From: Breoghania sp. L-A4
Lineage (GTDB): Bacteria; Pseudomonadota; Alphaproteobacteria; Rhizobiales; Stappiaceae
Reading direction: 5' to 3'
NCBI RefSeq assembly: GCF_003432385.1
Contig: NZ_CP031841.1
Location: 4,103,549-4,135,548 of the forward strand
DNA length: 32,000 nt
The position numbers and the translations under genes are program-made. Positions 12,157 through 27,935 of this stretch are shown here, piece by piece. Position 1 is the first letter of the stretch, and the number at the start of each line of letters is the position of its first letter. Below the pieces are notes generated by a model, which had not been told where the DNA came from, did no database searches, and saw only the letters and a list, made by a program, of their open reading frames with translations.

Positions 12157-13056
12157 TCACGGCATCGCCAGAAAGCGGCGCACCAGCGCGACGAAGGCCT
12201 CGGGTCGCTCCTCGTGCGGCAGGTGACCGGCGTCGGGCAGGATCACCGACCAGCAATCGGCCAGCCGCATCTGGATGTTGACCGAGTTCTTCACCGGCAG
12301 CACGCCGTCGCGCGATCCCCAGACCGACAGCACCGTGTGCCGCAATTCCGGCAGGCGCTTCTGCAGGGCGCCTTCGGAGAACTGGCGCAGGGTCTTGAGA
12401 AAGGCGCGCTCGCCATGATCGCGCAGCAGCAGGCCGTAGCAGTGATCGACCAGCGCCGCGTCGGGCACAGTGGCGGCGTAGGATTTTCTCAATTTGGAGC
12501 GGAAGATCGCCTTGCCGGTGCCGTGCCGGCGCAACAGCCCCGCGACCGCCCAGCGGATCAGCCCGCTGCGCACCAGCTTCTCGATTGAATGGGCGCCGCC
12601 GGCGATCCCGACGCTGTTGACGATGATCAGCCGGCCGACGAGATCCGGCGCGCGCAGGGCCATGGTGATCGCCACCGCCGCGCCGAAGGAACTGCCCGCC
12701 ACGTGGACCCGCGCGATCCGCAACGCGGCGCACAGCGCGATGATCCTGCCGGCGATGGCGTCGAGCGAATAGTCCTCGCCGGTTTTCGACGAGCGGCCGT
12801 AACCGGGCATGTCGACAGCCACCACCCGATGGCTTTGCGACAGCGGCGCGAAGACCGCCTGCCAGGTGGTCATGCACAGCGGGATGCCGTGCAGCAGGAG
12901 GATCGTCTCGCCCTCACCGGCCTCGCGATAGCAGATCTCGAAGCCGTCCAGGCTCACGGTCTGGGCATGAGGGTACATCTCGTCGCGGAATCCCCCCGCG
13001 TGGAGATCGGTCTTGGCGACCCGCGATCCGGAAAGATTGCGCGGCAGGAACATCAT
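12157..13056 (-). CDS. Alpha/beta hydrolase
   Basis: ILLLHGIPLCMTTWQAVFAPLSQSHRVVAVDMPGYGRSS, nucleophile elbow VAGSSFGAAVAI, late SVWGSRDGVLPV and DAGHLPHEE (Asp/His); start overlaps the upstream stop (TAATG). Confidence 0.85.
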   Translation of the reverse strand: MMFLPRNLSGSRVAKTDLHAGGFRDEMYPHAQTVSLDGFEICYREAGEGETILLLHGIPLCMTTWQAVFAPLSQSHRVVAVDMPGYGRSSKTGEDYSLDAIAGRIIALCAALRIARVHVAGSSFGAAVAITMALRAPDLVGRLIIVNSVGIAGGAHSIEKLVRSGLIRWAVAGLLRRHGTGKAIFRSKLRKSYAATVPDAALVDHCYGLLLRDHGERAFLKTLRQFSEGALQKRLPELRHTVLSVWGSRDGVLPVKNSVNIQMRLADCWSVILPDAGHLPHEERPEAFVALVRRFLAMP

Positions 13057-14795
13057 TACCCCCTTTGCGCCGCCTGCGGCGCGGCGACGCCTTCGCGCCT
13101 GAGAAAGCCGCGCAGCACATCGTTGAAGGCCTCGTGCATCTCCCAGTTCATGAAATGCGCGCCGCCGCGCATCAGCGCCAACTCGCTGCCCGCAATGGCG
13201 CGCTGCAGCGCGTCTGCGTGATGCAGCCGCACCAGCCGGTCCTGCTCACCATGGATGATCAGCGTCTCGCAAGCGATCTCCGACAGCGGGTGTGCGGGCC
13301 GGTGCGTGTTCCCCGCCAGCGTCTGGGCGGAAAACGACGCCGCGTCCTGGCGGTTGACCCGGTAAAACGTCTTCAGCTTGTAGAGCTCGTCGGCCCTCTC
13401 GCCCCGATAGTCCTCGGAGAACACCCAGGGGATCGTCTCGTCGAACAGCGCCTGCATGCCCTCGCGCGCAGCCTTCTCCCGCCACGCAGCCGTGGTTCTC
13501 AGGATCAGATCGTCGGCCGTCTCGTAAGCCGAGACCAGCACCAGCCTGCCGGCGAGATCCGGGCGCAGCAACGCCACCTGCTGGGCGATCAGCCCGCCCA
13601 GCGCCAGCCCGACGATGCTGACGCCACGCTCGCCGAGATGATCAAGCAGCGCGATGACATCGCCGGCCATGTCCCGCGTGTTCGCGCTGTCGGGCAGCGC
13701 GGAACTGCGCCCCGCGCCACGGTTGTCGACGGTGATCAGCCGGAAGGCGTCGTTGAGGGTGCCGCACTGGCGCGACCAGAAGCTGGTGTCCGTGCCCACC
13801 GGACAGAGGAACAGCACCGGCGGGCCCTCGCCTTCGGTGCGGTAGCACAGCGAGCCGCCGTGGCTGAGCGGCAGCCGCTCGGCATGCACCTTGCGGTAGA
13901 AATGATCGAAGATGTTGGCGACAAGCGAGCCGCGGTCGGGGATGCTCTCGAGCACCTCGCTGGGATCGTAGTGCGTCATGCCGCCATCGAGATAGTCGTT
14001 CTCGTAGCGGTGGGTGTAGGGATCGAACTGGAAGATGTAGGGAATGGCGCGCGGCTTGCGGCGCTCAAGCAGGATCAGCACGACCTCGCTCGCCACCAGC
14101 GAGGCCGCCATCAGGCAGGCGGAGGCGATGGATGGGCCGGTGCCGCGGAGAAAGTCGGTGTTGGAGTCGCCCTTTGACACATCGAAGTAGCTGATGTGCG
14201 CCAGCTTCGGCACGACGGAACAGGCGTAGCGCAACTGCTTTTCCATTGGCGGCATGTCGTCCGTGATGCCGCAGAAGGTCTCCATGTCCATGCCGTCGGG
14301 ATCGAACACCTGCATGGAGGCGCTGAAGCCGACGGGCGAGCCCATGAGGATGTAGAGCCCGCGGGCGCGCGCCGCGCGATGCAGCCTCAGGTGATCCTCG
14401 ATGGCGTAGAAATCGATGGCGTCGATGCAGATGTCGGCATCGCCCAGAACGGCATCGGCGTTGGCGTCGCAGAATTTCTCCGCGAACGTCCGCACGCTGG
14501 CGTCGGGATTGATGGCCAGGATCTCACGCTCCACCACATCGACCTTGCGCGCGCCCACGGTGGTGCTGTCGGCGCCCGCCTGGCGGTTGATGTTGGCGAG
14601 CTCGAAGGTGTCGGGATCAACGATATTGAAGTTGCCCACGCCCATGCGCGCCAGCGTCACAAGACAGTTGGAGCCGATGCCGCCGGTGCCGACGACGGCG
14701 ACGGTGGCGCGCGCGAGCCGCTCCTGCTCGGCCTCGCGCAGGATGCCGATGTTGCGCGAAAAGGATTCCCGGTACGTCTCGCTCAGCGCCATCAT
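13056..14795 (-). CDS. Fusion protein: E1/ThiF-like adenylyltransferase-fold domain + C-terminal alpha/beta hydrolase
   Basis: N-term VAVVGTGGIGSNCLVTLARMGVGNFNIVDPDTFELANINRQAG (GxGGxGS and D-F-x3-N-x2-R-Q); C-term ITVDNRGAGRSS, IVGLALGGLIAQQVALLRP, LIIHGEQDRLV, GGAHFMNWE. ATG 14795 overlaps the previous stop as ATGA. Confidence 0.85.
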   Translation of the reverse strand: MMALSETYRESFSRNIGILREAEQERLARATVAVVGTGGIGSNCLVTLARMGVGNFNIVDPDTFELANINRQAGADSTTVGARKVDVVEREILAINPDASVRTFAEKFCDANADAVLGDADICIDAIDFYAIEDHLRLHRAARARGLYILMGSPVGFSASMQVFDPDGMDMETFCGITDDMPPMEKQLRYACSVVPKLAHISYFDVSKGDSNTDFLRGTGPSIASACLMAASLVASEVVLILLERRKPRAIPYIFQFDPYTHRYENDYLDGGMTHYDPSEVLESIPDRGSLVANIFDHFYRKVHAERLPLSHGGSLCYRTEGEGPPVLFLCPVGTDTSFWSRQCGTLNDAFRLITVDNRGAGRSSALPDSANTRDMAGDVIALLDHLGERGVSIVGLALGGLIAQQVALLRPDLAGRLVLVSAYETADDLILRTTAAWREKAAREGMQALFDETIPWVFSEDYRGERADELYKLKTFYRVNRQDAASFSAQTLAGNTHRPAHPLSEIACETLIIHGEQDRLVRLHHADALQRAIAGSELALMRGGAHFMNWEMHEAFNDVLRGFLRREGVAAPQAAQRG

Positions 14796-15601
14796 AACCC
14801 TCCCGCGGCAACCGCGCGCCGCTCTTGCTGGCGCGACGCGAAGCGCGCGCGGAACCGCGCGCCATAGGCGTTCAGACGCGCCGCCGAGCTCCTGCCGACA
14901 GGCACGAAGACGTCGCCCGCCGCAATGTCCAGTTTCGAGCGGACAAAATCGTTGATCCGGCGATCGGGCGCTTGCGGCAAGGGGTTGTAGAAGAAGTCGC
15001 ACTCGTTGCGCAGGATCAGGTTTTCGGGCTCGAAGGTCACATCCGGGTCGTATTTGTCGACCACCGCGCGGGCCACGCGGATCACGTCCGGCGGCGGGAT
15101 GTCCCGCGCGTTGGGATAGACATGCGCGAGCTTCCCCAGCATGGAGTAGACCAGCGGGCTTTGCGAAATCGAGGTGACATAGACCGTGTCGCCGTGCCGC
15201 GCGACGAGACCGGAGATCTGTTCGAGAAGGGCGAGAAACAGGAACGACAGAAGCCCCGTGCCCTGGATGTCGCGCGAGAAGTTCATCGAACACAGATGCA
15301 CGATGGTGCCGTTTATGCCGCTGCCCGGCCCGCAGTCGAAGTCCGTGTCGCAGCCGGCGATGCCCTTGAAGACGCCGTCCTCGAAGACAAGCGCCAGCGC
15401 GGTTGCGAGATACAGCGGTGAGATCTTGAAGATGGCGCGCATGCGCGCGACGTGGCTCCCGTCCCAGCCGCGCGACAGCGTGGCGATGGTCAGGATCTCG
15501 TCCTCGAGCGCACGCAGCTCATTGCGATACGCCTTGGCGTCGCGCAGGATCACCAGCTCGTAGCGGCGAAACGGGATCCTTTCCGCGCCCGTAAACATCA
15601 C
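14792..15601 (-). CDS. Unassigned protein, possibly a divergent GNAT-like fold
   Basis: 269 aa from GTG 15601 (or ATG 15598). Contains FSRDIQGTGLLSFLFLALLEQISGLVARHGDTVYVTSISQSPLVYSMLGKLA; overlaps both neighbouring CDSs, implying it belongs to the operon. Confidence 0.7.
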   Translation of the reverse strand: MMFTGAERIPFRRYELVILRDAKAYRNELRALEDEILTIATLSRGWDGSHVARMRAIFKISPLYLATALALVFEDGVFKGIAGCDTDFDCGPGSGINGTIVHLCSMNFSRDIQGTGLLSFLFLALLEQISGLVARHGDTVYVTSISQSPLVYSMLGKLAHVYPNARDIPPPDVIRVARAVVDKYDPDVTFEPENLILRNECDFFYNPLPQAPDRRINDFVRSKLDIAAGDVFVPVGRSSAARLNAYGARFRARFASRQQERRAVAAGGL

Positions 15602-16650
15602 GCCTCTCCGCTCAGATGGCGCACCGCATCGTCCAGACAGCGGGCCGCGCCGGCCACATAGGCTTGCCGCCAGCGCGGATCGTCGGGGCAGAAAGCCCGC
15701 GTCATCCGCGCCCGCGCCCTGGCGAGCAACGCCGGGTCATGCGCGAAATGCCGGTGGGCGATGGTGTCCAGCCGCAGCGCCAGGAAGGTGCGCAGCGCAG
15801 GCCCCGTGCCGCACTCGAAGGTAACGCCGCAGAGATCGCGGCATGAGATCCCGCGCATCAGACCGGTGAGCAGATCGCCACGCACGCTGTAGAGCGCGTC
15901 GTCGCCCGCGTGGCTCATGGTGATCGGCGTCCGGAAGATCGCCTCGGCGCCTGCGACATCGGCCGCGGTGGCGAGCAACTGGCATTGACCGTAGCTCCCG
16001 ATGCCGGAATGCAGGTCAACGAAAATCGCCTTGTCCAGCGCGCCTTCGCCAAGCATGCCCGAGAGATAATCCGCAAGCGCGCGGATCTCGGGCTGCACCG
16101 CGTCACCGCCGTAAAACAGCCCGTCTGGGTTGACGAACTGACCGCCCGCCAGCGCCTCCTTCAGCGCGGATATGCCGCCCAGGCCCATCAGCCTGAGAAA
16201 AAAGACCGGCATCCAGAACGCGCCGAGCGCGCGGAATTTTCCCACGCTGTTGACCCAGTCATCGATGGCGGCGGCGCGGGCGTCCACCGTCCGGTCAACC
16301 GCTGAATGGTCGAGGACATTGCGGTTGAGATCGACATTGGCGCCGTTCACCCGGCGGCGCGCCTTCATGCCCGCGGGATTGATGACGTGCACCACGAGCA
16401 CGTGGACGGTTTCGAGGCTCCACGCCCGCGCGCGCAGAAACGCGATCTGCGCGGCGCTGCCGCAATAGCCCTCGATGCCGTGCAGCCCGCTGGTGACGAC
16501 CAGCTTGCGCGGCGACGTCAGATCGCCCGCGTGCGCCACGTCGATGACGTCATCGGCGCCGCCGATGGGCAGGTGATCAACGCGCAGATCCAGATCGCGG
16601 CAAAGATCCAGGAACGCCGCGCGGGCGGCCTCAAAGGTGGGGTGGAAATC
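15598..16650 (-). CDS. DUF2817 / M14-like zinc carboxypeptidase-type protein (5' end unresolved)
   Basis: FHPTFEAARAAFLDLCRDLDLRVDHLP...RKLVVTSGLHGIEGYCGSAAQIAFLRA...VHVLVVHVINPAGMKARRRVNGANVDLNRNVLDH...AIFVDLHSGIG. Track ORF runs open to 17220 through repeats, so the domain-based 5' boundary (~16650) is given. Confidence 0.75.
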   Translation of the reverse strand, partial: DFHPTFEAARAAFLDLCRDLDLRVDHLPIGGADDVIDVAHAGDLTSPRKLVVTSGLHGIEGYCGSAAQIAFLRARAWSLETVHVLVVHVINPAGMKARRRVNGANVDLNRNVLDHSAVDRTVDARAAAIDDWVNSVGKFRALGAFWMPVFFLRLMGLGGISALKEALAGGQFVNPDGLFYGGDAVQPEIRALADYLSGMLGEGALDKAIFVDLHSGIGSYGQCQLLATAADVAGAEAIFRTPITMSHAGDDALYSVRGDLLTGLMRGISCRDLCGVTFECGTGPALRTFLALRLDTIAHRHFAHDPALLARARARMTRAFCPDDPRWRQAYVAGAARCLDDAVRHLSGEA

Positions 16651-16725
16651 GGAAACCTCATCGCCTGTGGTCCGGGGCGCGCCTCGCGCATGTCGGATCG
16701 CCGAAACCGCCGCTCCAACCGCGCT

Positions 16726-16870
16726 GTCATCCCGGCCTCCGAGCCGGGACCCAGTAGCCGCCGGCCCCTCGGCTCTTGCCGTTGGTTCTCGGCCTCGTTG
16801 TGGCGACGGGTCATCGCGCGGGCTGTCGGTTACTGGGTCCCGGGTCTCGCCTTCGCTCGCCCGGGATGAC
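16726..16870. repeat. Intergenic inverted repeat element (arms 16726-16756 and 16831-16870)
   Basis: gtcatcccggcctccgagccgggacccagta versus reverse complement of tactgggtcccgggtctcgccttcgctcgcccgggatgac. Confidence 0.8.
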
Positions 16871-16948
16871 AATCGGGGCGAAGCCTGGACATCGCGGGAT
16901 GACTGCGCAGGGTGGTGTTCGCTCGCCCGGAGGTCAGCGCCCGACAAA

Positions 16949-17170
16949 CCTCTCCCATGGGGAGAGGTCGGCGCGCATGCGCCGGGTGAGGGGTGAAAAA
17001 CTCGACGTATCCAGGAGAGCGCTGATCCCCTCACCCCAACCCTCTCCCCATGGGAGAGGGGGCGAGCCGTTCGCCGCGAAGCCACTTGCGGTGACCCTGC
17101 TCCAAGGACAGCGAGGGACCGCCTCCCCGACAACGCCTCACCCCACACTCTCCCCATGGGAGAGGGGGTG
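16949..17170. repeat. Three clustered palindromic repeats (16949-16995 inverted orientation, 17027-17064, 17136-17170)
   Basis: Core CCTCACCCC(A/AC)ACYCTCTCCCCATGGGAGAGG repeated three times in ~220 bp. Confidence 0.75.
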
Positions 17171-17206
17171 CCGCCATCCGTCGTGGGGCGCGCGTCCGGT
17201 TGTGCC

Positions 17207-18463
17207 TCACGCCACCGCATCGGCCGGCTCCCGAATGTAGGCCTCGGGCGGCGTGCGTTTCCCCGCCTCCATGGCGTCGGTGTCCACCACCAGCATGACC
17301 TTGTCGTACTTCGTCGGCGCGTTGATCCACTTCATCTCGTCCTCGAGATGATGCCAGTCGCGCGTCATGATGGTTTGCAAATCGTCGATGCTCTTCACGT
17401 CGCCCTTCCACTGCTGCGAGCGGTTGTAGAAGGCGTCGTCGTGGCAGCTCTTCACGCAGGCCAGGCACTCGATGCAATCGTCGGGGCGGACCGAGACGGC
17501 GGGGCCCTTGGGCAGCCGCGCCAGCACCCCCTTGGGACAGACGTAGACGCAGTCGTAGCAGCTGGTGCATTTGACCGGATCGATGATCGGCTCGAAGTGG
17601 CTGCGGTAATCGCCCCTCGTGATCCAGTGGCGCGGCGTGGTCTTGTAGATCGTCGAGCTGCCGCAGCCGTCGAGCGAAATCAGCAGCACCACGCCGCCAA
17701 TCGTCGCCGTCCAGATGGCGAATTCGCTCAAGGTGAAGTCGTGGAACAGGCCGACCAGCGCCAGACCGGCGACGCCGACGCCGAAGTGGCTCAGCGTCTT
17801 CAGCCACAGTCGCTCCTCGGGCAGCACGTCCCACAGGGCGAACCAGGTGAGATGGAACAGCAGGATCAGCCCCATGGTGATCAGCGTGTAGGCGGGGAAG
17901 AAGAAGATCAGAAAGAAGATCGTCATGGCGTAGACCAGCGCCGTGGAGACCGCCTGCTCCATGCGGTCCCAAAAGCCGAACTGGGCGCGGGTCATCTCCG
18001 AGGTGCGGCGGTAGTTGCCGGCGATATAGGCGGGCAGATCATCGAAATGGGTCGGCCCCCACACGAGCTTGAAGCCGGTGCGCGCCTGCACCTCCTTGGC
18101 GTTGACGCCGGGCGCGGCATAGGGCGGCGCGATGATCCGCCGCGCCAGCACCTTGTCCTTGATGCCGGAGACGTTGATGGCGTCGATGATGTCGAATTCG
18201 TTGAACTCGTTCATGCCGGCCGCGCACCAGACGTTGGAGCCCTTGGAGTTGGCGACGATCAGGTAGCAGTCGATGCCGGAGAGGCGCTTGAGCAGCCGGT
18301 GCACGGTGAGCGTGTAGTTGCCGCTCAAGAAGACCGGCGAATGCTCGTCGGGGCGGCCGATCTCGCGCAGGCCCAGCTCGCAGGGGAAATTGAAATGCCG
18401 GAACAGCACGTGGAAGATCTCGTAGAACCTGAGCTTGATCATGCCCCAGATCCGGCCCGCCAT
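17207..18463 (-). CDS. HgcA-like corrinoid-binding membrane protein fused to HgcB-like 2x[4Fe-4S] ferredoxin (HgcAB-like fusion)
   Basis: HgcA-type cap-helix signature NVWCAAGM (nt 18212-18235) within LSGIDCYLIVANSKGSNVWCAAGMNEFNEFDII; transmembrane segment block; then CTSCYDCVYVCP (17534-17569) and CIECLACVKSC (17444-17476). Confidence 0.85.
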   Translation of the reverse strand: MAGRIWGMIKLRFYEIFHVLFRHFNFPCELGLREIGRPDEHSPVFLSGNYTLTVHRLLKRLSGIDCYLIVANSKGSNVWCAAGMNEFNEFDIIDAINVSGIKDKVLARRIIAPPYAAPGVNAKEVQARTGFKLVWGPTHFDDLPAYIAGNYRRTSEMTRAQFGFWDRMEQAVSTALVYAMTIFFLIFFFPAYTLITMGLILLFHLTWFALWDVLPEERLWLKTLSHFGVGVAGLALVGLFHDFTLSEFAIWTATIGGVVLLISLDGCGSSTIYKTTPRHWITRGDYRSHFEPIIDPVKCTSCYDCVYVCPKGVLARLPKGPAVSVRPDDCIECLACVKSCHDDAFYNRSQQWKGDVKSIDDLQTIMTRDWHHLEDEMKWINAPTKYDKVMLVVDTDAMEAGKRTPPEAYIREPADAVA

Positions 18464-18464
18464 G

Positions 18465-19118
18465 TCACTTCCTCCCCACGATGAGCTGGAAGGAGGACAT
18501 CGGCAGTCTCTTCGTCTCCTCGATGGAAAAGCCCGCCGCCTCGATGACGCCGCGCAGGTCCTTGATGGGGAAGCAGGCCCGGCGCAGGATGGCGAACTGC
18601 GGCACCCACATGATCGCCATGACCACCCGGTAGAGCGCCCGCAGCGCCCTGTTCTCCGGCCACACCTCGTCGGCGATCATGATGCGCCCGCCGTCTTTCA
18701 GGATCGTGCGGCAATCGCGGAAGATGTAGTCGAGGTATTCGCGTGACAGCTCGCCCACCACCATGGTGGAGACGATCGCGTCGAGGCTTTCGGGCTCGAA
18801 ATATTTGGGCAGGTCGGTGACGCTGTCCTTGATGATGGTGAAGCGGTCGGCGCAGTCGTTCTTCGCGATCGTCTTGCGGCACTCCTTGAGCATGCTCTCG
18901 GAGATGTCCATGCCGGTGACGGTGGCGCCCTTGTTCACGCATTTGACGCCCAGCGAGCCGGTGCCGCAGCCGATGTCCAGCACCCGGTCGCCGGGGCGGA
19001 CGCGGTTCGCGATCTCGGTCTTGATGCGGTCGATCTTGCCGCCGGTCAGAAGCTTGACCGACCAGTCGTAACGCTCGGGCGCGTATTCGACCCAGACCAT
19101 CCAACTGTACATCAGCAT
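18465..19118 (-). CDS. Class I SAM-dependent methyltransferase, corrinoid protein-associated (CpaM-like)
   Basis: VRPGDRVLDIGCGTGSLGVKCVNKGATVTGMDISESML; stop codon is separated by 1 nt from the ATG of the HgcAB-like CDS. Confidence 0.8.
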   Translation of the reverse strand: MLMYSWMVWVEYAPERYDWSVKLLTGGKIDRIKTEIANRVRPGDRVLDIGCGTGSLGVKCVNKGATVTGMDISESMLKECRKTIAKNDCADRFTIIKDSVTDLPKYFEPESLDAIVSTMVVGELSREYLDYIFRDCRTILKDGGRIMIADEVWPENRALRALYRVVMAIMWVPQFAILRRACFPIKDLRGVIEAAGFSIEETKRLPMSSFQLIVGRK

Positions 19119-19146
19119 CGTCGTTCTCCCGGACAGACGCGGCGCT

Positions 19147-20610
19147 TCAGACCCTCTCCCCGGCGGCCGGCGCCGCGCGCGCGTCGCGGTAGCCGCGCAA
19201 CTCGCCGCTCAACTCCGTCGATGTGGGGAAATGCGCCCGGTCGAGCACGGGGAAGATGACGATCTCGACGCCCGGCGGCGCCTGCACCGCGATACCCGTC
19301 TCCTGATCGTGCTGCTTGGACACGATGATCCGCTTGAGCGCGCCGCCCAGCGTGTAGGTCTGCGGCGGCAATGCTTCCGCGCCGAGCCGCGTCACGCTGA
19401 TCGCACACGGCGGCGAGGCGCCATTCGTCGCCTGGCGCGCCTCGATATGCGCCGACTGGGATTCCGCCACCCAGGTAAAATCCGTCCGCGTGGCGCCCGC
19501 GTTATCAAGAGAAAGCGGAGCTGCGGCGGCGAGGCCCGTGTCGTCATGCGGCTCGGTGATCGGGGTCGGTGCGCCGCAATACATGCAGGTGTTGTCCCGC
19601 GCGATGCCGACCACCTCCGCATCCAGCCCGTAGCGCCGCACGAGCGTTCCGCCACACGAGGCGCAGCGCGTGTCCGACACGCCATCCTTGAAGGTGTTGC
19701 CGACGTAGCAGAAGCGAATGCCCGCCTGACGCGCCATGTGCTGCGCCATCAGCAGGATTTCCGGATCGGTCCGGGTGGTGTTCACATAGAGATAGGCGGG
19801 GTGGAAGCCGACGTAGTGCAGCGGCACCCGGTCGCCGAGGTTCTCCAGCACCCAGTCGTTGGTGCGGCCGATCTCCTCCGCGTTGTCGTTGCGGCCGGTG
19901 ATGATGAGCTGGCTGATTTCCAGATGCCGGCCGGAGGCGTGCACCTGCTTGATGCGGTCGAGCACCGGCTGCAGCCGCGTGCCGCCGGTGAACTTGCGGT
20001 AGAAGCGGTCGTCCATCGACTTCAGCGAGATGGAGAAGATGTCGATGCAGCCGATCAATTCGTCGACCGGCGCCTCCTCGATGTAGAAGGCGGACTTGTA
20101 AAGCGTGCGGATACCGGCTGCCTGCGCCAGCCTCGAGGTCTCGACCACGAATTCGTGCCAGACGACGGGATCGTTGTAGGTCCAGGAAATCACGCCGATG
20201 CCGGTGGCAAGGCAGGTCTCGACGATCTGCTCAGGGCTGTAGTGCTTCACGTCGTGCGGGTTGAGATGGCGAACCTGCGAGGTCTTCCAGTTCTGGCAGA
20301 AGTCGCAGGACATCATGCAGCCGATGTTGCCCAGGCTGAGGATGCGCGCGCCGGGGCGGTAGTGGTAGACGGCCTCGGTCTCGATGAACTCCATCGTCGC
20401 CTCGACCGACTTGCCGTAGTTGAAGGTGCGCAGCTCCCCGCCGACGTTGCCGCGCACGCCACATTTGCCCATCTTGCCCGGCGCGATCCGGCAATTGCGC
20501 GGGCTGAGCTTGCACACCACGCCGTCCGCGGTGCCCTCGGCCCTTTGCCAGAAATCGGCCGGCGCGTGTTCGCGCGTCCATTGGACCTCCGGGATGATAT
20601 TCATGGTCAC
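19147..20610 (-). CDS. AmmeMemoRadiSam / PFL-activase-like radical SAM protein
   Basis: CRIAPGKMGKCGVRGN; radical SAM motif GCMMSCDFCQNW (CxxxCxxC); later Cys pairs CASC and CMYC; ~487 aa. Confidence 0.85.
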   Translation of the reverse strand: MTMNIIPEVQWTREHAPADFWQRAEGTADGVVCKLSPRNCRIAPGKMGKCGVRGNVGGELRTFNYGKSVEATMEFIETEAVYHYRPGARILSLGNIGCMMSCDFCQNWKTSQVRHLNPHDVKHYSPEQIVETCLATGIGVISWTYNDPVVWHEFVVETSRLAQAAGIRTLYKSAFYIEEAPVDELIGCIDIFSISLKSMDDRFYRKFTGGTRLQPVLDRIKQVHASGRHLEISQLIITGRNDNAEEIGRTNDWVLENLGDRVPLHYVGFHPAYLYVNTTRTDPEILLMAQHMARQAGIRFCYVGNTFKDGVSDTRCASCGGTLVRRYGLDAEVVGIARDNTCMYCGAPTPITEPHDDTGLAAAAPLSLDNAGATRTDFTWVAESQSAHIEARQATNGASPPCAISVTRLGAEALPPQTYTLGGALKRIIVSKQHDQETGIAVQAPPGVEIVIFPVLDRAHFPTSTELSGELRGYRDARAAPAAGERV

Positions 20611-20742
20611 ACTCCCTCACGCCACACCTGGGACAAGGGGACCCGCCGCCGCTCCCAGCCCGGGTGCGGCGTGATGACGTCCCTTGCGATGGATCCCGTC
20701 GGGCAACCCGTTTCCGCCCGGTCAATTCCGGGGCAGGCTTGC

Positions 20743-22050
20743 CTAATCGAGTATCAGTTCGGACAGTCCGAAGTTGACCTCGCCCTCCCTAGGCGGGCGC
20801 AGGTCGTCCTCGGTATAAAAGCGCTCCCACACCGCGTTGGAGTAAAGCTGGCCCTTGCGCGTCAGATGCACGTCGTACTCGCCGTCGACCAGATAGTCCT
20901 CGGCCGCCAGTTCATCGATGATCTCGCCGTAGACCAGCTTCATCGGCACGCCGAAGCGCGCCTGGAAATCGTCCTTGTAGACGTTGCCGACCTTCAGCCC
21001 CCGGATCATCACCCGGCGCATTTCCTGGTCCTTGGACAGATAGGTGGAGAAATCCAGCACCGGCTCGCCGCGATTGATGCGCGCGATGTAGTCCTTGATG
21101 TCGGTGATGTTGGTGTACATGAACTCTTGGATCGCCGACTTGGACGACACGCCGAAACCGATCATCGGCCACGTGCGCCAGTAGTAGTCGAGGAAGCGGC
21201 AATAGATCCTGCACCGGTCGGGATGGTAGTAGCCCGAGGTGCTGCCCGTCACATAGCCGGCCGCCTCCAGCAGGTTGAAGGCGGTCAGCGCCATGGCCTT
21301 TTCCTCGGCGATCTTCGGCAGCTTCATGCCGCGCGCCACGATCCACTTGTGGTAGGCGGTGTTGGTCCAGACCTCGAGCGGATAGGCGGTGATGCAGGAA
21401 AACTCGAGATCGATGGCGCGCCTGACCGAATCCTCCCAGATCTCGCTGGTCAGCCCGATGAGCGGATAGATCAGATCCACATTCACATGGGTGAAGCCGG
21501 AGTTGCGGATGATGTCGACGGCCTTGTCGATATCCTCCCGGCCATGCGGCCGGTTGGTATCCTTGAGGATCTTCTCATCAAAGCTCTGGATGCCGATGGA
21601 AAAGCGGTTGAAGCCGGCGTCAAACAGCGCGTCGACCTTCTCCTGCTCGACGCTCCTGGGGTCGAACTCGATGGCGATTTCCGCGTCCGCCGCCACATCG
21701 AACGTGCCGCGCACGGCCTCCAGGATGCGGATCAGCTGCTCCGACGACAACAGCCCGGGCGTGCCGCCGCCGAAATAGATCGCCTTGATCTCGAAGCGCG
21801 GAAACACCGGATTGTCCGGAAACCGCTCGATCTCGACGCACAGCGCCTGCACGTATTGCTCGCGCAGGTCGAGCTTTGTGTTCACGTAGACGGTGTAGTC
21901 GCAGAAATGGCACTTGGTCGAGCAGAACGGGATATGGATATAGATCGATGCGTCCTGCATCTTGAAGAAATCGTTGAACTCGCTGTAGGTATATTTGAAC
22001 GGATACGTATGAATGTTACGTCTGATATATTTCTCTGATGCATCGGACAT
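20743..22050 (-). CDS. HemW/HemN-like (coproporphyrinogen III oxidase family) radical SAM protein
   Basis: YIHIPFCSTKCHFCDYTVYV (CxxxCxxC), YFGGGTPGLLS, EFDPRS, RFSIGIQSFDEKILK, YPLIGLT. Confidence 0.85.
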   Translation of the reverse strand: MSDASEKYIRRNIHTYPFKYTYSEFNDFFKMQDASIYIHIPFCSTKCHFCDYTVYVNTKLDLREQYVQALCVEIERFPDNPVFPRFEIKAIYFGGGTPGLLSSEQLIRILEAVRGTFDVAADAEIAIEFDPRSVEQEKVDALFDAGFNRFSIGIQSFDEKILKDTNRPHGREDIDKAVDIIRNSGFTHVNVDLIYPLIGLTSEIWEDSVRRAIDLEFSCITAYPLEVWTNTAYHKWIVARGMKLPKIAEEKAMALTAFNLLEAAGYVTGSTSGYYHPDRCRIYCRFLDYYWRTWPMIGFGVSSKSAIQEFMYTNITDIKDYIARINRGEPVLDFSTYLSKDQEMRRVMIRGLKVGNVYKDDFQARFGVPMKLVYGEIIDELAAEDYLVDGEYDVHLTRKGQLYSNAVWERFYTEDDLRPPREGEVNFGLSELILD

Positions 22051-22089
22051 GGATCACACCTCCGCTCAAGAGCTGAATTCGAAACGGTT

Positions 22090-23595
22090 TCAGGCAAGCA
22101 GACGCAAATGCTCGAACGACGTGTCCGGGCTGCCGGCATGCTTGCGATTGTTGGGCATCATCGGGCGGCCGCAGGAGACGAAGAGCGCGCTCAGGCGGCC
22201 CCGGTCGCGTGCGCGCAGGGCCTCGCCGCCACGCGCGATGATCCGGACCGCGCTGCGCACGAGCGCGAACTGGAAGGCGCATTTGGCCGGATCCGGCGCG
22301 TTGATGTCGCCGGTGGCGATGGTGTTTTCCTGCTTGCAGCCGCCACCGCAGATGTAGCGGATGGAGCAGCGCGAGCACACCGGCTGCGCGTTGACGCCCG
22401 TCCGCCAGGCCGCCACTTTGGCGTCATCAACGCCCGCGTGAAAGTCGCCGACCTGGAAGCCCTCGTCGCCCACCAGCCGGTGGCACGGCATGATCGACTT
22501 GTCGGGCGAGAAGGTGAAATAGTTGCGCCCGCCGGAACAGAAGCCGTTGGCGAACTCGCCGTCCAGGATCATCCGCATCACCGTTTCCACCTCGAGGATC
22601 CCCTTGAAGCGGTTTGCGGGCGTGAACAGATCGAGATACCGGTCGTGCAGCGCTTCGAACTCGGCCTCGATCTTGGCGTTGTAAGGTGCCTGCCGGTCCT
22701 CCAGATCCGCGGTGTCGAAGGCCGCGTCGCCATAGACGGCGGCGTGGTTTTCCTCCGCCACCGCGGCCGGGAGAATCTGGAACCAGTCGAAAATGTTCAT
22801 GTCGTAGAGATGCCGCATGTCCTCGACCAGCGAGGAGTCGGGATAGGGCACGTAGGTCATCCGCGCCACCAGCGTGATGTCCTCGGACGCCGCGCGCACC
22901 TGCTCGCAGTTGCGCGCGATCGCCTCCTGCGAACCGCGCCCCGACTTGCGCGGCCGGTTGCGGTCGTGCGTCTTCGCGCCGCCGTCGATGGACACGGACA
23001 CGATGAACCGGAACCGGTGAAACAGCGACAGCTCGCGCCCGGTCAGCTTCGTCGTCAGGTTGGTGGAGACCCGGTAGATGAACTCGATGCCCAGCCGCGC
23101 GCGCATCTCCAGCGAGCGCGCGCACAGCTCCTCGATGACCGGAAAATTCATCAAGGGCTCGCCGCCGAAAAACTCGAACCGCACGGTCTCGCCCGGGCGT
23201 GTCTTCTCCTCGATGAAGGCGACAATGGCGTCGACGTCCACGTCCTTCGACAGCTTGCCCTTGAGCCGGCCGTAGTCGCCGCCTTCGGCGAAACAGTAGG
23301 TGCAGCCCAGGTTGCAGAAGGCGGTGAGATTGATGTTCAGCGCCAGATTGGCGCCGGCCAGCGGATCCGCCTTCGACAGCGCGCGGGCGTTGTAGGGCGC
23401 CAGCACCCCGGAGGCCCGCAGGCTCTCGAGTTCCGCCTCGGCCTCTTCCGGCCAGACCGGGTTGTCGCGGGTCAACTGGTCGCGCAGGGCGTTCGAGATC
23501 GTGAAAAGACGATGGGACTCACTGTCCAGTAAAACGGTGCCGCCGGTTTCCGGATCGACAGTGACGATCTCAAAATTTCGGGGCTCAATGCCCAT
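22090..23595 (-). CDS. Radical SAM/SPASM maturase-like protein with N-terminal PqqD/RRE-like region
   Basis: LNINLTAFCNLGCTYCFAEG (CxxxCxxC), FEFFGGEPLMN, VSVSIDG, and C-terminal SPASM pattern CSRCSIRYICGGGC; N-term GGTVLLDSESHRLFTISNALRDQL...ESLRASGVL is PqqD-like. ATG at 23595 preferred. Confidence 0.85.
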   Translation of the reverse strand: MGIEPRNFEIVTVDPETGGTVLLDSESHRLFTISNALRDQLTRDNPVWPEEAEAELESLRASGVLAPYNARALSKADPLAGANLALNINLTAFCNLGCTYCFAEGGDYGRLKGKLSKDVDVDAIVAFIEEKTRPGETVRFEFFGGEPLMNFPVIEELCARSLEMRARLGIEFIYRVSTNLTTKLTGRELSLFHRFRFIVSVSIDGGAKTHDRNRPRKSGRGSQEAIARNCEQVRAASEDITLVARMTYVPYPDSSLVEDMRHLYDMNIFDWFQILPAAVAEENHAAVYGDAAFDTADLEDRQAPYNAKIEAEFEALHDRYLDLFTPANRFKGILEVETVMRMILDGEFANGFCSGGRNYFTFSPDKSIMPCHRLVGDEGFQVGDFHAGVDDAKVAAWRTGVNAQPVCSRCSIRYICGGGCKQENTIATGDINAPDPAKCAFQFALVRSAVRIIARGGEALRARDRGRLSALFVSCGRPMMPNNRKHAGSPDTSFEHLRLLA

Positions 23596-24330
23596 GGCGT
23601 GCCTCACACTTTTCAGGTGTTCGACCGAGCGAGCAGACGCGCTGCAAAGGGGCGCGTTTGAAAAACTAATTTATATATTTACAACCTTAAGTTAGGTTAT
23701 ACTGATGATGCAGCTTAAAATTGCTTCTGTCAATCTGGCACGGTTAAAATTGGCGGTGACGCTTCTGCCAGCGTTTCATCTATATGAAATAGATAAGCTT
23801 TTAGAGAAACCTCCCCGCTGGAGCCGCGCCCGGGCGCGGCACGTGCGACCGCATCTGGAGCGTGTTCGGGCGGCCGCGGCGGCGGGCGGTTGCAGTACGC
23901 GATGAAGGCCCCGGCAAGGCGGCACCCGCGGTGCGCGCGCGAGACGTCCGGCCCGCGTTCGGCCACCCGTGCGCGACGGTTTCCCGTCAGGCGACAACCA
24001 TGGGTTGACAAAATCACGGATTCTCGGAAATGTTGTGTTTTCGAGAATTCACGAGACAGACACCCGGGACTGCTGAGAAAATTCTCATAACAACTATCGA
24101 TGAGAAGAAATTATCCGTTTCCTCGACAAGACATACAGGCCACTGCAAATGGACGCGATTTAAACCATGCGCTAAGCTTGCCATGATCGCCTCGCCATTT
24201 GACATGTCCTTGGCGCTTTGCCGCGCCGCCCGAAAGGCGCTCCGGCCGCGATCAGCCGCCGCGCCCCATGCCGGCGCCGGCTTCAAGAGAGATCGCATCA
24301 CGTCAGGCCTCGGCAGAAGGCAGTCGCGCA

Positions 24331-26652
24331 ATGAACCGGATCATCTGGGCCGACACGCTGTCCGACTACGCGCTGGCCGCGAGCGCCCATCGCAGGCTGG
24401 GTGCGTTTTGCGACGCCGCCGCCTGCTATCCGCTGTTGAGTTCAGCCTCCGGGGCCGCCCGGCTGCAGGCCGCCTTGCGTCCCTACGGGAGTGCTCTGAC
24501 CGCCTTTTCCGAGATTGTGCGCGGCGCGGATCCGGCGGACCGCGGCCGGTTTCTGGCCGCGCAGCTCGAATGGAGCGATGCCACCCCGATCAGCCTTGCC
24601 CCCGACGCCCCGCCGTCCGCTCTGCTGGACGCGCTCATGCGCTCGCTCGAGACCGGCCGCCCGATCGTCTTCGACGCGGCGGCGACGGGCGCCAAGAGGC
24701 CGCCCGCGCCGTCGCCCAGCATCGACGGCGCCAGGCTCATGATCGTGAACCGCAACAGCGCCCTGTCGCTGCCCGCCGCCCTCTATGCCGACGCCACCGG
24801 CAGGCGGCTGATCACGCTGGAGACGCTGGAGGACCTGGAACCGCAACTGTCCGGACAGCGCCCGGCGTCGGTCATGCTGGCGTCTGACCGCCACGATTTC
24901 ACCAAGAGCCGCCTGCAGGCGCTGCTGGCATGGAGCCAGGGCGCGGACGGGCCGGCCGATTTCGGAATTCTGTCCGGACGCTCGGCGAAGCAGGCGTCGG
25001 GCATCGTCGCGCGGCTGCTGATGCATCGCGATTTTCATGCCGGCGGCCAGAGCCTGATGCGGCCGCCGGATCTCGAACCGATCCCGGCCGCGGCAATGAC
25101 GCCGATGGAATATTACGTCATCGGCGCGCACGGCAACGAAATGCATCTCGATCACATGGACGACGAGGTGCTGTGCGGCGCCAACGCCGCGCCCGATCCC
25201 TCCGGCTTCGATTGCACGCGCAACTGCCCCTATGACAACCGCTTCGCGGCCCGCGAGATCCCCGCCCACGCATTACTGTTGCTCAGCTGCGACGCCTTCA
25301 CCCTGGCCGATGGCCTGGCGCCGCCCGGCGTCAATCTGCTTATGAGCCTTCTCGACGGCATGGCCGCGAGCGTGCTCGCGCCCTTCAAGCACGTCCAGTT
25401 CAACGAAGGCCTCATTCTGCTGGCCGGCGCGCTGCTCAAGGGCGGATTTTCGCTCGGCGGCATCGCCCGGCGGCTGAACGAGAGGGCGCGCAACGGCACG
25501 CTGCCCGATCCCGCCTATCTGGTGCTCGGCGATCCGGAACTGACCATGGCCGCGCAAGACCCCATCGTTGCGGCGCGGGTCGCGCCCGAGCCGGGCGGGC
25601 TTGTCCTGGAGCTGCGCTCGAACGGCGCGCCGGCGCTCGAAACCACCATCGCGTATGATCCCGACGATACAGACGGACCCTTGCCGCCGCTAGCGCTGGA
25701 GCCGCTCGGCGAGACGCTGCGCGATCCCGACATCTTCTACACGCTGACCCCGCGCCCCGCCGCCCGCGCGCTGACAATCACGCTGTTCGCCCGCGACCGG
25801 CTCCCCAAGGGCCCGCTGCTGTTTCGCGTCGAGCAGGCCGCGCGCCTGGGGCCGGTCGACCATGACGACATCCTGGGCCGGCTGAACCGCCTGTCGCTGA
25901 TCTCCGAGATCGGGCTGGACAACCGCGCGGCAAGGTGCGCGAAAGCCAGCATCCTGTCGTTCCTGCGCGCAGCCGCCGGCTTTCCCCGCCCGGTCGAACT
26001 GGCCATGGGCCAGTCGATGGTGCGCAACATCGATGCGCTCGTGGCTGCCGATTTCAAGAGCCTGCGCCGCGCCTCCCTGCGCGCCATGCTCGAGGAACTG
26101 GAACACAAGCGGGTCTGGATCAGCCAGCGCTACGCCCATGCCTATCCGCACATCGCGCGCGCGGGCCCGCGGGCCGACGGCGTCTGTCCGCATTGCGCAG
26201 AGCACACCACCTGCTGGCGCTACGAAGACACCTGCCTGCATTTCCCGCCGCGCAGGCTGTGGGTGTGCAACCAATGCGGCATCATCGCCGACGTTCCGGC
26301 CGAGCCCACCGCCACCATCGCGCTCGCCACCGTCGCGGCCCTGCCCGCGCCCACCCAACGGCAGACCTTCACCATCGCCAATTGCACGCAGGACCCGCTG
26401 GGCATCGGCTATTGCCTGCATTTCAACGCCTGGGGACAGCTCGGCATCAAGGCGGACGGCAACATCGGCGAGGCGACGCTGGCGCCGGGCGAGGAGATCG
26501 AGCGCACCGCCACCTTCCACTTCCCCGAGGGCTTTCCCGACGACGTCGTCTCCATGCAGTTCTTCGCCATGACCGACGCGATGGATCTGTATTTCCTCAG
26601 CCAGAAGATGCGCGCCCAGGTGCGCCACGTCCAAAGAGGTCAGACGCCATGA
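24331..26652 (+). CDS. Putative clan CD (caspase/gingipain C25/CHAT-like) cysteine peptidase with zinc-ribbon-like C-terminal region
   Basis: MNRIIWADTLSDYALAASAHRR...; YYVIGAHGNEMHLDH (His-Gly) and HALLLLSCDAFTL (hydrophobic strand-Cys), followed by PDPAYLVLGDPELTM; C-terminal CPHC...CNQC pairs. Confidence 0.65.
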   Translation: MNRIIWADTLSDYALAASAHRRLGAFCDAAACYPLLSSASGAARLQAALRPYGSALTAFSEIVRGADPADRGRFLAAQLEWSDATPISLAPDAPPSALLDALMRSLETGRPIVFDAAATGAKRPPAPSPSIDGARLMIVNRNSALSLPAALYADATGRRLITLETLEDLEPQLSGQRPASVMLASDRHDFTKSRLQALLAWSQGADGPADFGILSGRSAKQASGIVARLLMHRDFHAGGQSLMRPPDLEPIPAAAMTPMEYYVIGAHGNEMHLDHMDDEVLCGANAAPDPSGFDCTRNCPYDNRFAAREIPAHALLLLSCDAFTLADGLAPPGVNLLMSLLDGMAASVLAPFKHVQFNEGLILLAGALLKGGFSLGGIARRLNERARNGTLPDPAYLVLGDPELTMAAQDPIVAARVAPEPGGLVLELRSNGAPALETTIAYDPDDTDGPLPPLALEPLGETLRDPDIFYTLTPRPAARALTITLFARDRLPKGPLLFRVEQAARLGPVDHDDILGRLNRLSLISEIGLDNRAARCAKASILSFLRAAAGFPRPVELAMGQSMVRNIDALVAADFKSLRRASLRAMLEELEHKRVWISQRYAHAYPHIARAGPRADGVCPHCAEHTTCWRYEDTCLHFPPRRLWVCNQCGIIADVPAEPTATIALATVAALPAPTQRQTFTIANCTQDPLGIGYCLHFNAWGQLGIKADGNIGEATLAPGEEIERTATFHFPEGFPDDVVSMQFFAMTDAMDLYFLSQKMRAQVRHVQRGQTP

Positions 26653-27935
26653 CGACACCCGACGCGGCCCAACGGCCCGACAGCTTCATCGCCATACTGG
26701 ATCCCGGCACCGCGCACTTCCGCTACCTGCGCAGCGCGCGCGAGATGGGGTACAAGACCATCGTGATGAGCGCCGATCCGGACGCCTATCGGGCGGAGCA
26801 AGCGCTCTACAAGCAGCGGGTTCCGGAATACGACGAGGCCTGGACCGATGTCTTCGTGCCCTACGACTCGCCCGATCCGGACACGCTGACGCGTCTTCTG
26901 GAGCCCTATCGCGGGCGCATCGCCGGGGTAATCGCGGGCGACGAATTCCCCGTCCCGGCCGCAGCAAGGCTCGGCCGCGCGCTCGGCTTCAACTACGCCA
27001 CGCCCGAGGACGCGGACTGCCAGCGCGACAAATCCGCGATGAAGCGCCGGCTGATCGAGCGCGGCGTTCCCACCGCGCGCTACCGCACGGCCGAAAGCCT
27101 CCCCGACGCGCTCGCAACCTGGGAGGCGTTCGGCGGCGACTGCATGGTCAAGATGGTCGACTACGCCTCGAGCTTCAACGTCTTCCGCGTGCGCAGCCGT
27201 GAGGAGCTGGAGAACGCCTGGTACACGATCGTCGAGAACCGGCGCGGGCTGCAGGTCGCCTTCGATCTGGCGCAGAAGGTGATCGTGGAGGAGTTCATCG
27301 GCGGGCGGGAACTGACCGTCGAGGGTTATGTGCAGGACGGCCGCGTCGAGGTGCTCAACTTCTGCGAGAAGATCACCAACGAGAATTTTCTCGTCATCGG
27401 CCACTATATCCCCGCCCGCGTCACCAAGGCGGAAAGCGACGCGCTCGCCGGCATCGCCCGGCAATGCGTCGCGGCGCTTGGCGTCCAGAACACCATCTTC
27501 CACGCGGAAGTGCACCTGCGCGACGGCCAGCCCTTCATCATCGAATGCGCGGCGCGCACGCCGGGGCAGCATTCGGTCGAGATCATCGAGCGCACCTATG
27601 GCATCGATCTGATGACCATCAACATCGATCTGGCGATGGGCCGGTTCGTCAGCACCCGCAGGCGCCCGCCCGAGGCCTGGCACGCGCTGCTGGCGCTCTA
27701 CGCCACTGAGAGCGGGACGCTCAAGGAAATCAAAGGGCTGGAGGCGCTCAAACAGCGCGAGGATCTGGTCTGGCTGGCGCTGGACGTGGCGCCGGGCCAG
27801 CCGGTGCGCAAGCTGGAAACCTTCAAGGACCTGTGCGGCCTGGCGGTGGTCGGCGGCCCCGCGCCCGAGGACGCCGAAGCCGGGTACTGCTGGATCCGCG
27901 AAAACCTCGTCTTCGTCGTCGAGGACGGCGCATGA
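26649..27935 (+). CDS. ATP-grasp domain carboxylate-amine ligase
   Basis: MGYKTIVMSADPDAYR; CMVKMVDYASSFNVFRV, KVIVEEFIGGRELTVEGYV, FHAEVHLRDGQPFIIECAARTPGQHS; starts with an ATGA overlap with the upstream CDS. Confidence 0.85.
   Translation: MTTPDAAQRPDSFIAILDPGTAHFRYLRSAREMGYKTIVMSADPDAYRAEQALYKQRVPEYDEAWTDVFVPYDSPDPDTLTRLLEPYRGRIAGVIAGDEFPVPAAARLGRALGFNYATPEDADCQRDKSAMKRRLIERGVPTARYRTAESLPDALATWEAFGGDCMVKMVDYASSFNVFRVRSREELENAWYTIVENRRGLQVAFDLAQKVIVEEFIGGRELTVEGYVQDGRVEVLNFCEKITNENFLVIGHYIPARVTKAESDALAGIARQCVAALGVQNTIFHAEVHLRDGQPFIIECAARTPGQHSVEIIERTYGIDLMTINIDLAMGRFVSTRRRPPEAWHALLALYATESGTLKEIKGLEALKQREDLVWLALDVAPGQPVRKLETFKDLCGLAVVGGPAPEDAEAGYCWIRENLVFVVEDGA

Follow-up and report, generated by a model that had tools for sequence, protein, structure and literature searches.

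A conserved gene cluster joining an HgcAB-like corrinoid protein to three radical SAM enzymes probably acts on the terminal Cys-Trp of a small peptide made by the ribosome

In the biosynthesis of fosfazinomycin, a small molecule is assembled at the C-terminal end of a scaffold peptide, from which it is later cleaved (PMC13622209). The work on ammosamide gives the same course, with Trp as the elaborated residue of the ribosomal scaffold peptide (PMC12715798). Among peptides that the ribosome makes and that are modified after translation (RiPPs), ThiF-like enzymes that adenylate the peptide C-terminus include MccB, GrcB, which forms a thiolactone via a Cys thiol, and IndF, which forms an indolylamide via the indole nitrogen of Trp (PMC12596934, a 2025 review). 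Cobalamin-dependent radical S-adenosylmethionine (SAM) enzymes of class B are common RiPP tailoring enzymes (PMC13331322). The native role of HgcAB and the function of its fused paralogues are an open question in mercury biogeochemistry. Here we describe a locus of Breoghania sp. L-A4, contained in a window of 32,000 nt (the whole stretch analysed; all coordinates of this locus are window positions), in which an HgcAB-like fusion protein and its methyltransferase partner CpaM are encoded together with three radical SAM (rSAM) enzymes and a 73-aa peptide ending in Cys-Trp. We consider it fairly probable that this is an uncharacterised RiPP-type or scaffold-peptide cluster acting on the C-terminal Cys-Trp, the catalytic roles proposed below being drawn from homology and gene context. 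Literature searches on HgcAB-like/CpaM, on HgcA with RiPP and on AmmeMemoRadiSam found nothing on this cluster, on CpaM, on its rSAM partners or on the peptide.

The G+C content of the window, about 66%, gives rise to many spurious open reading frames (ORFs). Eleven coding sequences (CDSs), lettered here A to K in window order, are each backed by family or homology evidence. Nine of them lie on the minus strand and encode an alpha/beta hydrolase (A), a fusion of a ThiF/E1-like adenylating domain with a hydrolase-fold domain (B), a GNAT-fold protein (C), an M14-like protein (D), the HgcAB-like fusion (E), CpaM (F) and the three rSAM enzymes (G, H and I). The other two, encoding a candidate peptidase (J) and an ATP-grasp ligase (K), form a divergent pair on the plus strand. 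A preliminary description of this stretch had placed the same eleven CDSs at the same coordinates, and its domain calls stand. It had also read translational coupling at five junctions, all of which we found in the sequence: TAATG at 13056, ATGA at 14795, GTGATG at 15598-15601, TGAcATG at 18463/18465 and ATGA at 26649. The set is unusual in combining three rSAM enzymes with a fusion of E1 and pseudo-hydrolase, a GNAT-fold protein and an ATP-grasp ligase.

Neighbourhoods were anchored on E (17207-18463) through exact-protein look-ups and a scan of one genome per species, and all eleven window proteins were mapped onto each locus by tblastn; 14 distinct full-length loci of 16-32 kb were compared. 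Genes G, H, I, F, E, C and B were found together, in near-identical order, in 12 of these 14 loci, B being present in every full cluster; three shorter contigs were consistent with this order over their length. The full loci come from Breoghania, Stappia, an uncultured marine alphaproteobacterium, Telmatospirillum, two Bradyrhizobiaceae, three Acidobacteriaceae, Thermoanaerobaculia, Streptosporangiaceae and Chloroflexi, so that four groups hold the cluster (Alphaproteobacteria, Acidobacteriota, Actinobacteria and Chloroflexi). Its patchy distribution appears to reflect horizontal transfer. A grouping whose gene content and order are repeated in unrelated phyla goes far beyond chance. A was found in ten of the 12 full clusters, K within 10 kb of the cluster in eight and J in four. 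Both J and K follow directly 3' of B in the same operon in Thermoanaerobaculia, as does K in the Bradyrhizobiaceae. D is limited to the closest alphaproteobacterial relatives, its slot being taken by an M20 peptidase in the other, non-marine loci. Membrane proteins of the EamA or DUF6198 type, which are putative exporters, are encoded alongside the cluster in eight of the 12 genomes, and genes of these two types are absent from the 32-kb Breoghania window. The preliminary description had proposed a dedicated biosynthetic or modification pathway, to be checked by exactly such a neighbourhood analysis and to be abandoned if the homologues were mostly scattered and the pair at 24331-27935 did not co-occur with the minus-strand unit. 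Neither was observed, and the conserved neighbourhood supports a dedicated pathway.

The preliminary description had ended the unit at 27935 and thereby missed a small gene that lies 100 nt further on (28034-28255, minus strand) and is convergent with K. It is preceded by a Shine-Dalgarno sequence, GGAGGA, 7 nt 5' of its ATG, and encodes a 73-aa candidate precursor or scaffold peptide, MAKISDLHQSTHDALLSTLESYHEELARISAAEERLQLQRGIVKATAAAELQGMSDKLRVSNEHVGALVAACW, which ends in VAACW and whose single Cys is penultimate. This gene belongs to the one conserved small-ORF family that came out of a conservation screen between loci, carried out with the known genes masked because the unmasked screen was swamped by shadow ORFs. 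A precursor gene was also sought in the 724-nt intergenic region at 23607-24331, where no ORF was conserved in other loci. No Pfam or NCBIfam model matches the peptide family, on which ground a suspected Nif11/NHLP leader identity was rejected.

Nine loci carry homologues of the peptide next to the cluster. The gene is found immediately 5' of K-J in Stappia and in a marine metagenome-assembled genome (MAG), directly 3' of K in the Bradyrhizobiaceae, and as the first gene of the operon in Chloroflexi; altogether, it heads the operon in three loci. The Thermoanaerobaculia MAG carries two tandem copies (20572-21099 of that locus) that are 49% identical, both end in ALCW and are convergent with the cluster. 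Searched exhaustively with phmmer, a set of 1.8 billion representative proteins yielded only 15 peptide clusters. Their C-termini were CW in 12 cases, CL in two and NW in one, and the rest of the sequence was 34-51% identical. When the peptides read from the loci were added (21 sequences), the counts were 16 for CW, two for CL and one each for NW, VC (Chloroflexi, ending ...VTVC) and FG (Bradyrhizobiaceae). When three of the new peptides were looked up independently, each recovered cluster genes, the first in the operon order peptide-G-I-H-A-F-E-C-B, the second in the order peptide-G-I-H-A, and the third in a gene convergent with a J homologue.

The peptide thus has a helical and divergent body and a nearly fixed C-terminal Cys-Trp. 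We read it as a RiPP precursor or scaffold because of this variable helical body, the near-fixed C-terminus, the tandem duplication and the obligate linkage to maturase-type enzymes, that is, because a small gene next to modifying enzymes encodes a variable leader and a conserved candidate modification site. As the probable substrate, this peptide turns the "biosynthetic or modification pathway" of the preliminary description into a RiPP or scaffold-peptide pathway, and defines a new candidate family with a two-residue, Cys-Trp modification site. It also displaces the limit of the unit: the eleven genes remain, but the functional unit continues past 27935, taking in the peptide gene and a gene for a ribbon-helix-helix-like protein.

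The enzyme most directly suggestive of peptide maturation is I (22090-23607, minus strand), a candidate rSAM/SPASM maturase with CxxxCxxC and SPASM motifs and an N-terminal extension of 88 residues. Its best families are PapB (184.4 bits for a cut-off of 340), the nif11-peptide maturases, QhpD (1.2e-41) and the SCIFF maturases (134.8 bits for a cut-off of 425), all of them under cut-off. The best match in the PDB was the SCIFF thioether synthase CteB (5wgg, 1.5e-30), in an alignment that begins upstream of the rSAM core, where residue 47 of I is paired with residue 55 of CteB. The maturase reading of I is based on the fact that these peptide thioether maturases (CteB, PapB, the SCIFF maturase and QhpD) are its closest relatives; as with them, the enzyme has the CxxxCxxC motif, the SPASM domain and the N-terminal extension, and the target peptide holds a Cys. 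Unlike their substrates, the peptide has a single penultimate Cys and no Cys-rich core, and I stays under every equivalog cut-off. A sactipeptide or ranthipeptide was rejected in view of the one Cys in the peptide and of the PapB and SCIFF scores.

The second rSAM enzyme, H (20743-22050, minus strand), has Radical_SAM and HemN_C domains with the motifs CSTKCHFC and GGGTP, and is a candidate class C radical SAM methyltransferase. It scored 217.6 bits against HutW (cut-off 400) and 205.9 against HemW (cut-off 205.4), and in the PDB it matched HemN (1olt, 7e-37) ahead of the methyltransferase NocN (9p2u, 7e-26).

The E1 fusion B (13056-14795, minus strand) has a ThiF domain (PF00899, 147.9 bits), scores 260 bits against PRK08223 (cut-off 266), and counts PaaA, MoeB, ThiF and MccB among its PDB relatives. 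It resembles MccB, GrcB and IndF in its ThiF domain and in being associated with a peptide of fixed C-terminus, whose Cys and Trp offer the same nucleophiles, thiol and indole, that GrcB and IndF employ. It differs from them in lacking an N-terminal RiPP recognition element (RRE) and in carrying a C-terminal alpha/beta-hydrolase-fold domain. In this domain the nucleophile position is occupied by Ala (GxAxG) in 13 of 13 homologues. An active serine hydrolase was therefore rejected, and the hydrolysis role that the preliminary description had given to the E1 fusion is doubtful. Judging from this motif, the hydrolase half of B is probably a pseudo-hydrolase rather than a serine hydrolase, and perhaps serves as a binding domain.

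The hydrolase A (12157-13056, minus strand; Pfam Abhydrolase_1/6) keeps an intact nucleophile elbow, GSS[FY]G, which is conserved in its homologues. C (14792-15601, minus strand; 269 aa) matches no Pfam or NCBIfam model, and only 12 homologues of it could be detected, each encoded in one of these clusters. The AlphaFold model of C (pLDDT 87.9) gave 161 PDB matches at E <= 1e-3, GNAT enzymes leading; Foldseek matches included YhbS, AAC(2')-Ia, NatD and the loading GNAT domain of CurA, with E values of about 1e-5. The predicted structure of C is thus a GNAT fold. D (15598 to about 16650, minus strand, start codon uncertain) is a DUF2817 protein (PF10994, 198 bits), that is, an M14-like metallopeptidase or deacylase, and keeps the HxxE zinc motif as LHG[IV]EG. 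J (24331-26652, plus strand) is a 773-aa protein without sequence match in Pfam or the PDB, and comprises a caspase/gingipain-like His-Gly...Cys dyad, beta-sandwich domains and a CxxC...CxxC ribbon. The preliminary description had called it an HG/Cys peptidase. In favour of this, H267-G268 and C320 are invariant, as are C619, C622, C646 and C649, and the top Foldseek match was gingipain K (4rbm, E 5e-6); against it, the TM-scores were only 0.23 and 0.36, and the model, with an overall pLDDT of 83.8, falls to 52-74 around the dyad. From the model, the peptidase reading of J would be reasonable but not secure.

K (26649-27935, plus strand) combines an ATP-grasp core (ATP-grasp_4, 68.3 bits) with the C-terminal domain typical of L-amino-acid ligases (LAL_C2, 42.4 bits for a cut-off of 29.4), and its best PDB matches are the L-amino-acid ligases BL00235 and BacD. 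In the Thermoanaerobaculia MAG the ATP-grasp gene is followed by a gene for a peptide-binding SBP_bac_5 protein, and the Bradyrhizobiaceae MAG whose peptide ends in FG encodes a second ATP-grasp ligase and an Asp/Glu racemase just downstream.

The HgcAB-like fusion E (17207-18463, minus strand), 100% identical to a protein of Breoghania sp. L-A4, and CpaM (F, 18465-19118, minus strand), a corrinoid protein-associated class I SAM methyltransferase, are separated by 1 nt and are adjacent in all 18 loci examined; in Chloroflexi, they are fused into one protein of 646 aa. E reached 350 bits on NF043039 (cut-off 285) and CpaM 253.5 bits on NF043040 (cut-off 180). With both cut-offs passed by adjacent genes, the two correspond to the HgcAB-like/CpaM pair already named in NCBIfam, where the names come without a function.

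HgcA has the cap-helix motif N(V/I)WCA(A/G)GK, in which the Cys is essential. E shares with HgcA and HgcB a corrinoid-binding domain of the type found in the corrinoid iron-sulfur protein (CFeSP), whose large subunit is the sole solved relative, followed by a transmembrane segment and a 2x[4Fe-4S] ferredoxin domain with two CX2CX2CX3C motifs. Its cap helix reads NVWCAAGM. Cys80 is invariant in 26 homologues, and the Lys is replaced by an invariant Met. For E, as for HgcAB, supply of the methyl group from SAM is plausible, SAM being the methyl donor of HgcAB (PMC11588087). E differs from the true proteins in being one fused chain and in scoring well under the cut-offs of the HgcA model NF040863 (144.6 bits for 275, over residues 25-187 only) and of the HgcB model (34.2 bits for 99). 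It also has no Cys in its last 75 residues or so, that is, after the ferredoxin domain, while a C-terminal Cys-Cys is present in nearly every HgcB (Haft selenoprotein preprint, which concerns true HgcA and HgcB and not the fusion). Moreover, unlike HgcA and HgcB, E has an obligate separate CpaM partner and an rSAM partner, and it stands in a peptide or natural-product cluster without metal genes.

This rSAM partner is G (19147-20610, minus strand), a pyruvate formate-lyase (PFL)-activase-like enzyme with a C-terminal extension of about 135 aa, whose PDB relative is the PFL-activating enzyme. It passes TIGR04337 (269.5 bits for a cut-off of 220), as expected of AmmeMemoRadiSam proteins, yet its constant partners are CpaM and the HgcAB-like protein. 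An AmmeMemoRadiSam system was rejected, no AMMECR1 or Memo domain being present in the cluster genes here or in the syntenic loci. G is the only cluster gene that accompanies E and F into two other biosynthetic clusters. In a Desulfobacteraceae MAG (3608-17755 of that locus), CpaM, the HgcAB-like protein and a G-type rSAM enzyme are encoded inside a cluster resembling those of nonribosomal peptide synthetases (NRPSs), with condensation and adenylation domains, an ATP-grasp ligase of the L-amino-acid ligase type, a major facilitator superfamily pump, a pair made of a pyridoxal phosphate (PLP) enzyme and an ornithine-cyclodeaminase-family protein, and a metallo-beta-lactamase-fold gene. In a cluster from Terriglobia, the same three genes occur with two further rSAM enzymes and a PLP enzyme of the Cys/Met type. 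The occurrence of G, F and E in two unrelated biosynthetic clusters suggests a portable tailoring cassette.

These findings suggested that G, F and E are possibly the three parts of a split cobalamin-dependent radical methylase, since together they hold an rSAM core, a corrinoid and a supply of methyl groups from SAM, as class B radical SAM methyltransferases do. Unlike in class B enzymes, no Rossmann-type B12-binding domain was detected with Pfam in G, H or I; the corrinoid would be carried by a separate membrane protein of HgcA/CFeSP fold and methylated by a separate class I methyltransferase. The trio may therefore work like a class B enzyme without being a member of the class. A fuller version of this proposal, which we put forward tentatively and with less than even confidence, is that G, CpaM and the HgcAB-like protein are the three components of a cobalamin-dependent radical methylase (or of an enzyme forming another C-X bond) that has so far gone unrecognised and serves to tailor natural products, here the Cys-Trp peptide. 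The locus may accordingly display a new, three-protein build of this kind of enzyme, employed again in gene clusters of at least three kinds.

The cluster context hints at a non-mercury role of this HgcAB relative and provides a testable alternative, namely that the HgcAB-like protein is the methyl-transfer component of a peptide natural-product pathway. If so, methyl transfer in secondary metabolism would be a non-mercury, and possibly ancestral, job of the HgcAB family; "hgcA-positive" aerobes such as Breoghania would not be mercury methylators, and environmental surveys based on hgcA should leave out this clade.

For a RiPP or scaffold-peptide route we propose the following scheme. The peptide's long N-terminal portion would act as leader or scaffold, with the C-terminal Cys-Trp as the site of the chemistry. 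The CteB-like enzyme I would bind the peptide and cross-link it by radical chemistry, most probably through a thioether from the Cys. An sp2 carbon, for instance in the indole ring, would receive a methyl or methylene group through the HemN-like enzyme H. CpaM would methylate the reduced corrinoid of membrane-anchored E with SAM as donor, the ferredoxin domain of E keeping the cobalt reduced, and G would make the substrate radical that accepts the methyl group, the three proteins acting as a cobalamin-dependent rSAM methylase split in three. By adenylation, the ThiF domain of B would prepare the C-terminal carboxylate for transfer or for reaction with a nucleophile close by (the thiol of the Cys or the nitrogen of the indole); acyl transfer and hydrolysis would fall to the GNAT-fold protein C and to the serine hydrolase A. 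The M14-like protein D or the M20 exopeptidase, together with the clan-CD-like protein J where present, would then free a small product, which K may extend and which the EamA or DUF6198 proteins may export in other genomes.

The use of a long peptide whose C-terminus is elaborated before release by a peptidase would bring this pathway close to the systems with a peptide aminoacyl-tRNA ligase (PEARL), such as those for ammosamide and 3-thiaglutamate, and to fosfazinomycin. The fact that exopeptidases of two families, M14-like and M20, fill the same slot in different lineages is in keeping with such a release. In contrast to PEARL systems, no LanB-like PEARL is present, the Cys-Trp is genetically encoded, and the enzyme set is wholly different (three rSAM enzymes, a corrinoid protein, an E1 and an ATP-grasp ligase).

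Several observations weigh against modification of the Cys-Trp peptide. Within 10 kb, six of the 12 full loci showed no peptide gene, and the peptide of one Bradyrhizobiaceae locus (17121-17366 of that locus) ends in ...DSLFG and contains no Cys, despite a full enzyme set. No Pfam match to an RRE or PqqD domain was found in I, and the ThiF domain of B starts at residue 13, which leaves no room for an N-terminal RRE. The three rSAM enzymes and the GNAT protein fall below every characterised equivalog cut-off, save that of TIGR04337 and, borderline, that of HemW. E, as a membrane protein, is an odd partner for a soluble peptide. Finally, the HgcAB-like family is not tied to peptides alone: in Streptomyces sp. 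CNQ-509, an HgcAB-like fusion that is 32% identical to E, and an adjacent methyltransferase, are encoded in a mer operon (9336-17252 of that locus), without an rSAM neighbour and beside genes for a P-type ATPase, a DUF169 protein, an ArsR-type regulator, a MerA-like reductase, MerR and MerB. This context suggests that at least one branch of NF043039 is linked to mercury.

We also considered that the pathway might act on a free amino acid, giving for example a methylated Trp or Cys antimetabolite that the ATP-grasp enzyme would later join into a dipeptide, the 73-aa protein being a regulator, a chaperone or an immunity factor. K is indeed a ligase of the BacD/BL00235 type, and the M14 and M20 peptidases, the SBP_bac_5 gene and the EamA/DUF6198 exporters would all suit a cluster for a Trojan-horse dipeptide. 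The loci without a nearby peptide gene, half of the total, and the presence of G, F and E in the NRPS-like cluster, which has no such peptide, point in the same direction. Yet only the last two residues of the small protein are strongly fixed, which is the behaviour of a substrate rather than of a regulator, and the ribbon-helix-helix-like protein already provides a separate candidate regulator. The peptide gene is moreover tandemly duplicated, is the first operon gene at three loci and, as a query, leads back to the cluster, and I belongs to peptide-maturase families, with CteB as its nearest relative. We therefore regard a free-amino-acid product as unlikely.

The peptide could also give rise to a redox cofactor that is used inside the cell and not secreted. 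Pyrroloquinoline quinone (PQQ) and mycofactocin are made from the C-terminal residues of a small peptide by a SPASM rSAM enzyme and a peptidase, and Cys and Trp are the residues of the cofactor cysteine tryptophylquinone. This precedent fits the peptide, the SPASM enzyme and the peptidases found here, as do the score of I against the QhpD family and the lack of an exporter gene in the Breoghania window. However, no dehydrogenase or nicotinoprotein partner recurs beside the cluster, exporter-type genes are present in eight of the 12 loci, and the distribution is patchy with the look of horizontal transfer. Known cofactor pathways also do without an L-amino-acid ligase, a GNAT protein or an E1. 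A cofactor appears to us somewhat less probable still than a free-amino-acid product.

In Lin et al. 2023, Breoghania sp. L-A4 is named as the sole aerobic organism with a fused hgcAB, its mercury methylation being putative, and their article quotes the finding that mercury is not methylated by the fused protein of Pyrococcus furiosus (PMC10083202). A role of E and CpaM in methylating mercury, or some other metal or metalloid, with neighbours that are unrelated or merely supportive, is very improbable: the homology of E to HgcA and HgcB, the conserved cap-helix Cys, SAM as the methyl donor of HgcAB and the mer context of the distant CNQ-509 pair speak for it, whereas E scores below the cut-off of the HgcA equivalog model and lacks any Cys after its ferredoxin domain, no mer, ars or metal-transport gene was found in the window cluster or in the 12 syntenic loci, nor any metal gene in a locus of the clade of E (45-100% identity), and the tight, translationally coupled synteny with peptide-maturase-type genes speaks against coincidence. 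A true mercury methylase was rejected on the failed HgcA model and the absence of metal genes nearby.

Beyond the peptide gene, the unit takes in a gene for a 99-aa ribbon-helix-helix-like protein (28783-29082, plus strand; RHH_4, E 3e-4, below cut-off). Homologues of this protein (48-64% identity) lie beside the cluster in five other loci, and it is a plausible regulator of the cluster. A promoter-like site, TTGACA-17-CATCAT, lies 5' of the nine-gene unit (23705-23733, minus strand), purely as a consensus match with 10 of 12 positions in agreement, and an intrinsic-terminator-like hairpin with an 11-bp stem (9 GC pairs) followed by TTTTGT lies 3' of the peptide gene (27964-27988, minus strand).

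Between E and D, the Breoghania cluster is interrupted by an unstranded insert resembling repetitive extragenic palindromic (REP) elements, found by repeat analysis at 16660-17206. The repeat CCCTCTCCCCATGGGAGAGGG occurs at 17028-17064, 17134-17170 and 12071-12107; the 37-mer CCCTCACCCCAACCCTCTCCCCATGGGAGAGGGGGCG is identical at 12071 and 17028 and shows 78% identity at 17134. A 27-nt inverted repeat is present at 16741/16820 (16741-16846). These REP-like palindromes fill a gap of about 500 nt that is not present in other genomes, where the homologous D overlaps the end of E, and the insert was thus not part of the ancestral cluster. The homology of D to its relatives begins near 16690, although the stretch between 16872 and 16539 holds no ATG, GTG or TTG in frame, the nearest in-frame starts being a TTG at 16872 and a GTG at 16539. 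On this reading of the frame, D has lost its normal start to the insert; in this strain, it would have a REP-derived extension or a truncation of about 37 residues, or be poorly expressed.

The G+C content over 17000-24000 is 0.59-0.65, with its minimum over the HemN-like gene, compared with 0.64-0.70 in the flanks. Together with the patchy distribution across phyla, this lower value inside the cluster fits horizontal acquisition. Of the loci in other phyla, that of the Chloroflexi MAG is a variant cluster (2951-6253 of that locus) with an extra flavoprotein of the HFCD type (PF02441), a family known for decarboxylating a C-terminal Cys.

No cobalamin riboswitch was found in an Rfam scan of the window, in which only a speF leader (41 bits) and the alphaproteobacterial sRNA ar45 (49 bits) passed the thresholds. 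Both are within 10909-11210 on the minus strand, 5' of a gene of the ornithine/diaminopimelate decarboxylase family (9714-10844), and are unrelated to the cluster.

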